Origin: Promethearchaeota archaeon
Lineage (GTDB): Archaea > Asgardarchaeota > Lokiarchaeia > Sigyniarchaeales > SOKP01
Length of the DNA: 25,043 nucleotides
NCBI GenBank assembly: GCA_008080735.1
Contig: SHMW01000026.1
Coordinates: forward strand, 21,145-46,187
Direction: 5' to 3'
The notes beneath the pieces are model-generated. The model did no database searches and was not told the origin of the DNA. It saw only the letters and a list, made by a program, of their open reading frames with translations. The translations under genes and the position numbers were made by a program. Numbering within the stretch: position 1 is the first letter of the stretch; each line of letters starts with the position of its first letter. This document shows positions 5,965 through 8,517 of the stretch, piece by piece.

Positions 5965-7500
5965 CTAGGAATAAAGAGCAAAAATTTGGGAGATGTCCCG
6001 ATGGATAATATCTTTATCCGCTTGGAACTCCTCATGGGTTATAAACAGCTTTTTAAATGAAGGGAGACTCCCAAGAATTGCAGCTCCGTTAAATATTGAG
6101 AGCTGTAAATTATCTGGAACGAAAAACTTTAAAGCGTTTTGCGATTCGTCGAAATATTCGCTTACTTGAAAATTCGGAGCTGCAGCAGCAAAATCTTCTG
6201 TAGATCTCTCGGAAGCTTGTGGTTGGGTCTTTTTCAGATTTGCCCCGCAATAAGGACAAAAAGCTGAGTCCTCTTCCTTTATCTCTTTCCCACATTCAGG
6301 ACAGACATTTGGAGTCTCGGATTTTTCTTGCTCGTTTTTATTCATATCAATTTGAATTTGAGGGACTTCTAAACTTGCTCCGCATTCCGGACATTCCTTT
6401 TGTCCTTCCGAGAAAGAAACTAAATTTCCACACTCAGGACATGTATCCACTGTCCTTTGCGATCCATCAACAGGTTGAAGTTTCATACGATTCCCCTGTG
6501 TTTCTGGCTCATGCGGTTTTGGGATAGGACCTAATTGAGAAAGAAGAGGGTCTAAATCTATTTTTAAGCGCTCTTCAAACCCACTATGAAGAAGATTTCC
6601 ACCCGATAAAACTACATGTGTGAGAAAATCACCCCAGTACTCCTTATTAACATTTTCTAAGCAGGTTATAATAGCTTGAGGAATACTTGGGGAGTTTGAA
6701 CCCAGCATTTGTGGTTGGAATATCACTTCAGGTGCCTCATAGAGAATATGTGATGGGATATTTACTTTCGAGCCATCAGGCATCGGATAGGCAACATTAT
6801 CCTTGGTATCTTTCGGATTCTCTGGATCGAGAACAAAATAGCAATTCTTTTCTTTAATTTCCCGTATAATCTCCTCAACGGCTGAAGATGTAATATTTAT
6901 CCCCTCTCGCATTAAAAGAGATTTAAGATTTTGGCTAATATCCATGCCCGCAAGATTTAATCTTTGGACCGCCTGATACATTATCTGTCCATTAATAATC
7001 GGCACGATCCATGTAATACCATCTCCGCTTTCAATCACGAACCCAGTTGTAAGTCCAACAGAAAAGCATGAAAGAATCGGGGATGGTACCATAATAACGC
7101 TCTGGAATTGATGTGTCTCAAACATCACACGAGCAATGTATTCTTTCACATCATTTTGCTGAAAGGGGGGCTCTACATATAAAATCGGGTAATTTTGTGG
7201 ATTTTCGATTCTTAATAGGGTATAAAAGGAATGATTAAGTATTTGATACCAGTCATCCCAATCTGTTATGGTACTCCGTTCGATTGGGTGATTTATTTTT
7301 AAAACACCCCGCATCTTCATAGCATCGCTTCCAACATATACATTACGCGCATCTACATCAACCATAACAGTTTTATATTTTTCAGTCCCAGTTATAGTTG
7401 GAAACATATAGCGTGGTCCAGACTCACCTGCAAATCCAACTTTCGTATATGCGGAACCAATATCTAATATGATGGGAGTTCCGGGGGGTGGTAGGGTCAT
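5965..7500 (-). CDS. Actin-related protein with double zinc-ribbon insertion
   Basis: Actin motifs ILDIGSAYTKVGFAGE..P, YVGSDA, HPIERSTITDWDD, TTGFVIESGDGIT.IVPI, LAG.D, IREIKEK.CY, Y.MPDG, PEVIFQP, VVLSGG, GAAILGSL..F...FIT.EEF. Four CPxCG knuckles lie at aa 354-418. Confidence 0.93.
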   Translation of the reverse strand: MTLPPPGTPIILDIGSAYTKVGFAGESGPRYMFPTITGTEKYKTVMVDVDARNVYVGSDAMKMRGVLKINHPIERSTITDWDDWYQILNHSFYTLLRIENPQNYPILYVEPPFQQNDVKEYIARVMFETHQFQSVIMVPSPILSCFSVGLTTGFVIESGDGITWIVPIINGQIMYQAVQRLNLAGMDISQNLKSLLMREGINITSSAVEEIIREIKEKNCYFVLDPENPKDTKDNVAYPMPDGSKVNIPSHILYEAPEVIFQPQMLGSNSPSIPQAIITCLENVNKEYWGDFLTHVVLSGGNLLHSGFEERLKIDLDPLLSQLGPIPKPHEPETQGNRMKLQPVDGSQRTVDTCPECGNLVSFSEGQKECPECGASLEVPQIQIDMNKNEQEKSETPNVCPECGKEIKEEDSAFCPYCGANLKKTQPQASERSTEDFAAAAPNFQVSEYFDESQNALKFFVPDNLQLSIFNGAAILGSLPSFKKLFITHEEFQADKDIIHRDISQIFALYS

Positions 7501-7607: not shown

Positions 7608-8042
7608 CTATTCATTAATTAAAAATTCTGCCAACTTATCTAAAATATTACGTTCTAATACGAGACCGACCAACTGATTTTGCTCATTTACAACGGGTAA
7701 TCTTTCGATGTTAAATCGGAACATCTTTTTCAAGATATTTTTTAATGTATCGGTTTTCTTGGCGACATAAGGTTCGGAGGTCATGAGATCTCGTACCAAT
7801 GTTTGAGATTCTATGGACATAGCAAATTTGGCCAAACGAATGTCTCTCTGGGTAATAATTCCCAACAATTGTTTTTCATCCCTTGAACTTACCACGGGAA
7901 GACCACCTATATTTTTGCGAAGCATTAACAGTTCCGTGGTACTTATCTTCTCATTCGGTGTAATGTATAAGGGATCTTGGATCATTATTTCACCTACCTT
8001 TATTTGACCAAACTGTTGCAGATTATGTGGTTTAAGGTCCAT
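7608..8042 (-). CDS. Stand-alone CBS-domain pair (Bateman module) protein
   Basis: Two CBS repeats: VGEIM...IGGLPVV...LLGIITQRDI and VRDLMT...IERLPVVN...LVGLV. Confidence 0.9.
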   Translation of the reverse strand: MDLKPHNLQQFGQIKVGEIMIQDPLYITPNEKISTTELLMLRKNIGGLPVVSSRDEKQLLGIITQRDIRLAKFAMSIESQTLVRDLMTSEPYVAKKTDTLKNILKKMFRFNIERLPVVNEQNQLVGLVLERNILDKLAEFLINE

Positions 8043-8154: not shown

Positions 8155-8517
8155 CTATTTTAACTCGCTTTCAAGTTTCGCAATCCCTTCGGATAACGTG
8201 CGGAAACGTTGTAAGAGATATTTGCCCCAGTTGTTCAGTTTTACAAACCCTCCGCCACCAGGCCCTCCTTTACTTGTAATCACTGGAGAATAGCCCGTTC
8301 TCTTTTCTATACGCTTCAGAATGTTCCATGCATATTTATAGGAATAATTACATTCCTTTGCAGCCTCCGTCAAGGAATTTATCTCATCATTATCTATACA
8401 CGCTAATAGATTCGCCCATCCAGAGCCTAAAATACTTTTATCTTCGAATTCTAACCAAATTTTTATTCCAAAATCCACTTTTTCTTTTAGCTCTTCAAGA
8501 TTGGCATCCTCTTCCAT
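8155..8517 (-). CDS. ModE-like N-terminal winged-helix transcriptional regulator (no molybdate-binding TOBE domains)
   Basis: KIWLE...LG.G...LL..I...SLTEAAKECNYSYKYAWNILKRIEK..G.PVI..KGGPGGGG...L...G..LL, the ModE HTH signature. Confidence 0.87.
   Translation of the reverse strand: MEEDANLEELKEKVDFGIKIWLEFEDKSILGSGWANLLACIDNDEINSLTEAAKECNYSYKYAWNILKRIEKRTGYSPVITSKGGPGGGGFVKLNNWGKYLLQRFRTLSEGIAKLESELK

Follow-up and report, generated by a model that had tools for sequence, protein, structure and literature searches.

Eukaryotic actin-related proteins (Arps), i.e. Arp2/3, Arp1 and the nuclear Arp4-Arp9, keep the actin core, carry altered surface loops, often have degenerate catalytic residues and serve accessory or scaffold roles. 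To our knowledge, no eukaryotic Arp carries zinc ribbons in an insert. Among the Asgard archaea, four actin homologues of Candidatus Lokiarchaeum ossiferum, including UYP44711.1, were assayed by reverse-transcription quantitative PCR (RT-qPCR), and Lokiactin transcripts exceeded those of the other homologues severalfold (PMC9834061). Analysis of a 25,043-nucleotide stretch of DNA from a lokiarchaeal Promethearchaeota archaeon (GenBank assembly GCA_008080735.1, contig SHMW01000026.1, positions 21,145 to 46,187; hereafter the window) revealed an actin-related gene, P0001 (5965-7500, stop codon included; 511 residues), the product of which carries predicted zinc ribbons within its actin core. All features given below by window coordinates lie on the minus strand. 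By analogy, P0001 appears to follow the logic of the Arps, with a kept core, a changed loop and altered catalytic residues. It resembles Lokiactin and eukaryotic actin in its predicted complete fold, its DNase I-binding loop (D-loop) of normal length, its phosphate loops, plug region and hydrophobic groove, but differs from them in sequence (~35-40% identity), in forming part of a separate clade, in its length of 511 residues, in a 134-residue insert at actin loop 322-326 and in the substitution of Q137, H161, D154 and H73.

The assignment to the actins rests on several kinds of comparison. Pfam Actin (PF00022) matched residues 9-321 of P0001 with an E-value of 3.6e-73 and 246.9 bits (cut-off 27), and a second stretch that aligns with Actin follows the insert, so that Pfam and the sequence alignment to PDB entries together cover both halves of the fold. 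Against solved actins, the alignment ends at residue 319-320 and picks up again at residue 456-457. The N-terminal core (residues 1-321; 6538-7500), delimited by Pfam and alignment to solved actins, comprises subdomains 1, 2 and 4 and most of subdomain 3, and the C-terminal core (residues 456-511; 5968-6135), delimited by alignment and the AlphaFold2 model, corresponds to actin 327-375 with its strand, groove helix and C-terminus. The AlphaFold2 model had a mean predicted local distance difference test score (pLDDT) of 86.7, and Foldseek matched it to actin chains with template-modelling (TM) scores of 0.88-0.93, as expected of the four-subdomain actin fold. The 60 best sequence matches in the PDB were all actins, the top one being 9wc4, 'HC1 actin'. 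Judged by the model, the core of P0001 is predicted to be a complete actin fold. The initial annotation of this DNA, which had been made from the letters alone, called the product an Asgard actin-related protein and proposed AlphaFold modelling as a check; Pfam, PDB alignment and model all agree with it, and it is close to certain that P0001 is a member of a conserved family of actin paralogues, referred to below as the zinc-ribbon actin family.

The interruption of the core lies in subdomain 3, where alignment to actins places 134 residues (322-455; 6136-6537) at the site of actin loop 322-326. An insert in this loop had been annotated at 6136-6531 (residues 324-455), and the break and resumption of the actin alignment bear this out. 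Among 139 other actin-family domains that span the loop, the largest insertion at this site measures 11 residues. The insert runs from an exit motif through linker 1, ribbon 1, linker 2 and ribbon 2 to an acidic linker 3 that carries an acidic-aromatic motif, and the actin fold is re-entered at LKFFVPDN. The exit motif, LSQLGPIPKP (residues 320-329; 6514-6543), was defined from the alignment, where its family consensus is LLPQLGPIPKP and its pairwise identity 0.77. Ribbon 1 (residues 349-382; 6355-6456) reads DTCPECG...CPECG and continues into a PQIQI strand; ribbon 2 (residues 398-421; 6238-6309) reads CPECGK...FCPYCG. The corresponding family forms are DTCPxCG...CPxCG followed by a short conserved P-Q/E-I-x-I strand, and CPxCxK...FCPYCG. 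The four knuckles of P0001 (CPEC at residues 354, 370 and 400, CPYC at 415) span nucleotides 6441-6247. Several Pfam zinc-ribbon families scored over their cut-offs in the insert, namely PF13240 (43 bits), PF12773 (34 bits) and PF24460 (42 bits, with the insert alone), as well as PF13248, and in an alignment of 66 sequences the eight insert cysteines are invariant columns, as are D352 and G358. The earlier proposal of two C4 zinc ribbons with knuckles at 6441-6247 is thus upheld by the Pfam cut-offs and by the invariant cysteines.

In conservation the ribbons come close to the actin core, and the linkers evolve fast: pairwise identity across the family amounts to 0.65-0.69 for the core and 0.58-0.59 for the ribbons and drops to 0.18-0.22 for the linkers. 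The AlphaFold2 model follows the same division, with pLDDT values of 88-91 in ribbon 1, 84-88 in ribbon 2 and 36-65 in the linkers. The insert has the layout of 'beads on a string', with two predicted C4 zinc ribbons joined by linkers of low model confidence. Just ahead of the re-entry into the actin fold lies the acidic-aromatic motif, NFQVSEYFDE in P0001 (residues 443-452; 6145-6174), the family pattern of which, A-x-E-F-S-x-F-x-D/E, was present in 113 of 114 parsed members, whereas a control linker of the same length had it in 36 of 140. The linkers had been described as Q/E/P-rich. This holds for P0001 only, the insert of which is acidic throughout; in the family at large there is a tendency towards a basic linker 1 and an acidic linker 3 (median net charge +4 in linker 1, -2 in ribbon 1, +1 in ribbon 2 and -5 in linker 3), and the linkers are poorly conserved. 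None of the matched families DZR (PF12773), Zn_Ribbon_1 (PF13240) and DUF7575 (PF24460) has a known function that might be carried over to P0001, and unlike free-standing double zinc ribbons, the ribbons of P0001 sit inside an actin fold on long linkers. A clear donor of the ribbons was not found in the source genome, in which about 10 other small generic ribbon proteins are weakly similar to them.

Since an insert of this size within a conserved fold is unusual, we considered whether it is an artefact or a selfish element, be it through misassembly, through fusion of two genes or as an intein-like insertion that contributes nothing to the mature protein. The initial annotation had itself named misassembly and homologues lacking the cysteines as outcomes that would overturn it. 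All of 120 listed homologues (55-95% identity, 498-525 residues) keep the four CxxC motifs at matching positions. The same in-frame architecture recurs in homologues from well over 100 independent assemblies produced by many studies, two of the members lying on single-contig genomes, and the cysteines are invariant in ribbons that evolve nearly as slowly as the core. Pfam gives only zinc-ribbon matches in the insert and no intein or endonuclease family. Misassembly, gene fusion and intein were excluded on these grounds, and the probability that we assign to an artefact of any such kind is close to nil.

To delimit the family, 300 genomes of the phylum were sampled and the two remaining families of the order were searched in addition. 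Full-length matches were found in 67 of the 68 sampled genomes of the window's own family; a second family of the same order yielded divergent full-length matches (38-45% identity) in the 300-genome sample, and the two remaining families have a zinc-ribbon actin gene as well. Outside the order, no full-length match was found in the 300-genome sample, which gave only Lokiactin-type matches that end near residue 321. In the genomes searched, the zinc-ribbon actin family is confined to one order of Lokiarchaeia (labelled Promethearchaeia at NCBI), which includes Ca. L. ossiferum and Ca. Harpocratesius repetitus, each with a member. The search of Asgard genomes that had been suggested for this architecture thus returned it across four families of a single order. 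All members examined have ribbon 1. Most also have ribbon 2, which is absent from one family of the order and from the Lokiarchaeum genus, so that the 'double' ribbon of the initial annotation applies to P0001 and all listed close homologues but is not a trait of the family as a whole. The exceptional genome (G040, 100% complete) yielded neither the zinc-ribbon actin gene nor the membrane-protein gene that adjoins it elsewhere, nor the metallo-beta-lactamase neighbour. Because the last was also not found, the exception is probably an assembly gap in which the whole locus is missing, and we rejected the joint loss of the actin gene and its membrane neighbour as evidence for their linkage. Several metagenome-assembled genomes from one study, labelled Hodarchaeota, Hermodarchaeota, Odinarchaeota or Thorarchaeota, carry the order-specific gene at 56-58% identity and in the same context (loci L023, L034, L037, L038, L046, L054, L056 and others); for this reason their NCBI labels look unreliable.

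The position of the insert bears on how the protein may contact other actin subunits. In F-actin, P243, D244 and G245 of subdomain 4 contact P322 and M325 as well as M283, I287 and D288 in subdomain 3 of the neighbouring subunit (PMC7247010), which agrees with the annotated location of loop 322-328 near the longitudinal filament contact. In the zinc-ribbon actin family, the insert takes the place of the 322-325 contact. The second acceptor, loop 283-294, ranks near the bottom of the protein in conservation, at percentile 0.007 versus random position sets; given that these sets include buried residues and that the sequences are related, this and the following percentiles are descriptive and not statistical tests. 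The pointed-face set (D-loop, residues 61-65, 200-208 and 241-248) lies at percentile 0.93 and the hydrophobic groove at 0.82, and the stretches of lateral contact are below average at ~0.27-0.31. Sequence comparison thus points to a barbed face of which the subdomain-3 shoulder is remodelled and the groove is kept.

The active site is altered as well. Actin residues H73, Q137, D154 and H161 correspond to R75, S140, E157 and W164 of P0001 (residues 140-164 are encoded at 7009-7083), and the substitutions recur over the family, with frequencies of 1.0 for R at H73, 0.56 for S at Q137, 0.98 for E at D154 and 0.88 for W at H161. P0001 is hence not a catalytically canonical actin, which would retain all four residues. 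The nucleotide-binding residues D11, K18, G156, D157, G158, G301 and G302 are all kept in P0001, and the residues of the nucleotide loops are mostly invariant in the family, D157 being kept in 82% of members. By alignment, then, Q137 and H161, which position the hydrolytic water, appear replaced, and the phosphate loops and the glycines of the adenine pocket appear retained. Because the phosphate loops are kept and Q137, H161, D154 and H73 are substituted, P0001 would be expected to bind ATP and to hydrolyse it poorly or not at all.

A phylogeny against Lokiactin had also been proposed in the initial annotation. In a quick IQ-TREE tree of 74 rows, the zinc-ribbon actin family formed its own clade (support 99), separate from the Lokiactin clade (support 100), and grouped weakly (88) with another paralogue of the source genome and two proteins of 376-379 residues. 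Five genes of the source genome encode an actin fold; one of them is a true Lokiactin of 381 residues that is 57-65% identical to eukaryotic actins. As the genome has its own Lokiactin, P0001 is probably not the builder of the main filament. The three further actin-fold genes, on contigs C44, C2 and C20, are divergent, and the one on C20 is without much of the middle of the fold.

These features might still belong to a polymerising isoform, which would form filaments of its own or co-polymerise along Lokiactin with the insert looped outward and the ribbons serving as docking sites on the filament surface. The D-loop, plug region and groove are kept and are conserved at or above the protein average, the fold is nearer actin than any solved Arp (as reflected by the exclusively actin PDB matches and their TM scores), and linkers so long and flexible could steer the ribbons off the interface; but both subdomain-3 acceptors of the neighbour's subdomain-4 loop are changed, one by replacement and the other by divergence, the lateral-contact stretches are conserved below average and neither of the hydrolysis residues, Q137 and H161, is retained. 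The severalfold excess of Lokiactin transcripts over the other homologues assayed in L. ossiferum likewise speaks against a second major filament former, and we regard a polymerising isoform as unlikely.

We tentatively favour another reading, to which we give a little less than an even chance as a whole: P0001 may be an accessory, hydrolysis-poor actin that docks on Lokiactin, most likely at a filament end, and captures a partner with its tethered ribbons. Docking would use the actin-actin contacts that are kept, namely the D-loop, residues 61-65, the loops of subdomain 4 and the hydrophobic groove. The filament end is the most likely site, where P0001 could act as a cap, anchor or seed, because the remodelled subdomain-3 shoulder presumably cannot take a neighbour in the canonical manner. 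The ribbons, held on tethers of 15-35 residues, would be able to reach and capture a partner at a distance of up to several nanometres, and the basic cytoplasmic tail of the adjoining membrane protein is a candidate for such a partner. The adaptor, capping, nucleating and non-polymerising roles suggested in the initial annotation are likewise candidate roles.

This membrane protein is encoded directly downstream of P0001 (4771-5847). It has 358 residues, an alpha/alpha-toroid domain (Pfam Prenyltrans), one C-terminal membrane helix and a basic tail of 5-6 residues, which in ~80 loci takes the form W/Y-R/K-K/R-R-R/K-I/L-COOH (WRKRRI-COOH type) and in the divergent family reads YKYKNRI. Upstream of P0001 lie a CBS-pair protein (7608-8042), found in the window's own family, and a stand-alone ModE-like winged-helix protein of 120 residues with a GGPGGGG loop (8155-8517), which is conserved and, in loci that have no CBS gene here, abuts the actin gene. 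Of 80 related loci, 70-75 keep the succession of ModE-like gene, CBS gene (where present), zinc-ribbon actin gene, membrane alpha/alpha-toroid gene and folD. The same order without the CBS gene is mostly kept in eight divergent loci, in which the actin gene is only 34-48% identical and the CBS gene was not found at this position. Beyond the taxonomic order, the membrane protein has few full-length relatives, and these match weakly. The linkage of the actin gene with its neighbours is suggestive only. One may envisage a more specific arrangement, in which P0001 would use its pointed face to dock where a Lokiactin filament grows and its ribbons and acidic-aromatic motif would hold the WRKRRI-COOH-type tail of the toroid protein at the cell surface; taken in this detail, we consider such a filament-end anchor a long shot. 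The membrane protein also gave a sub-threshold Pfam match to the N-terminal domain of Ribophorin II (E 0.0025). The ModE-like protein, the gene of which lies directly upstream of the actin gene even in the loci of 34-48% identity, may serve as a dedicated regulator or act as a partner.

The conserved winged-helix neighbour is also one of the observations that would fit a non-cytoskeletal role, in which P0001, by analogy with the nuclear Arp4-Arp9, would be an actin-fold scaffold that forms part of a larger complex, either as a monomer or as a heterodimer, and whose ribbons bind nucleic acid or a factor of transcription or translation. Lost hydrolysis residues suit a static scaffold, and ribbons of this type are common in nucleic-acid-binding proteins; the Pfam matches to the specific ribbons of this kind (TFIIB, RPB9, Spt4-like and NOB1) are, however, weak and below their cut-offs. 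Ribbons and linkers are not consistently basic either, as seen from the negative medians of ribbon 1 and linker 3 and from the acidity of the P0001 insert, and a scaffold of this sort would leave the conservation of the D-loop and groove unexplained. We judge it quite improbable. Nucleic-acid binding was also considered from charge alone and is not supported, the family medians being mixed and the P0001 insert acidic overall.

Several points weigh against an accessory actin docked at a Lokiactin filament end. The barbed face is only partly remodelled, and since the groove is well conserved, this site may still receive a subunit or some other partner. Retention of the P-D-G loop in subdomain 4 is weak evidence for a working pointed face because this loop hardly varies in any actin-family protein, and the descriptive nature of the conservation percentiles applies here as well. 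Residues 326 and 328, we assume, lie on the outer filament surface, where a flexible loop-out might be tolerated within a filament. As to the neighbours, T-runs directly follow the stop codons and TATA-like boxes (ctttataatatttt; catatataagtg) precede the next genes in both intergenic regions that flank P0001 (5868-5964 and 7501-7607), and for this reason the actin gene and its neighbours may be separate transcription units and not one operon. Synteny within a single order may, in addition, partly reflect shared descent.

A member of the family is present in a cultured strain. Both published RT-qPCR primers for UYP44711.1 of Ca. L. ossiferum map inside the orthologous open reading frame (locus L096, 367-1866, minus strand) of a 6.0-Mb single-contig genome of the same order; this frame is the best match to P0001 in that genome (41% identity). 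The primers thus identify the zinc-ribbon actin family with one of the three 'ARPs' reported by Rodrigues-Oliveira et al. 2022. The L. ossiferum protein resembles P0001 in its insertion site and in having ribbon 1 followed by the same QIEI strand, but differs in its length of 499 residues and in having one zinc ribbon only, so that experiments in L. ossiferum would not address ribbon 2. The main text of that study does not contain the word zinc and handles UYP44711.1 only as an ARP in the tree and as an RT-qPCR target (PMC9834061). No description of the insert was found in the literature searched, which included the main text and part of the supplement of PMC9834061, the 2020 asCOG preprint and PMC13716822. 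The statement of the initial annotation that no characterised actin of this architecture is known therefore stands, within these sources, as far as the insert is concerned, and needs correction in that the L. ossiferum member already figures as an ARP in a published tree and RT-qPCR. In public databases, members of the family are named 'double zinc ribbon domain-containing protein', 'actin-related protein' or 'centractin'.

Together, the data describe an actin family, found in almost all sampled genomes of one order, in which zinc ribbons replace a filament contact and the hydrolysis residues are lost. Because primers and expression data are available for the member from a cultured strain, one Asgard ARP can be tested directly. 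If the proposed role as a cap, seed or anchor of Lokiactin is true, actin paralogues that regulate filaments would have arisen in archaea independently of the eukaryotic Arps. If the more specific end-anchor arrangement holds, P0001 and its relatives would tie the actin cytoskeleton to the envelope within the cell protrusions of Loki-type Asgard archaea, and would represent a prokaryotic counterpart of the eukaryotic actin-membrane linkers, made from an actin paralogue.

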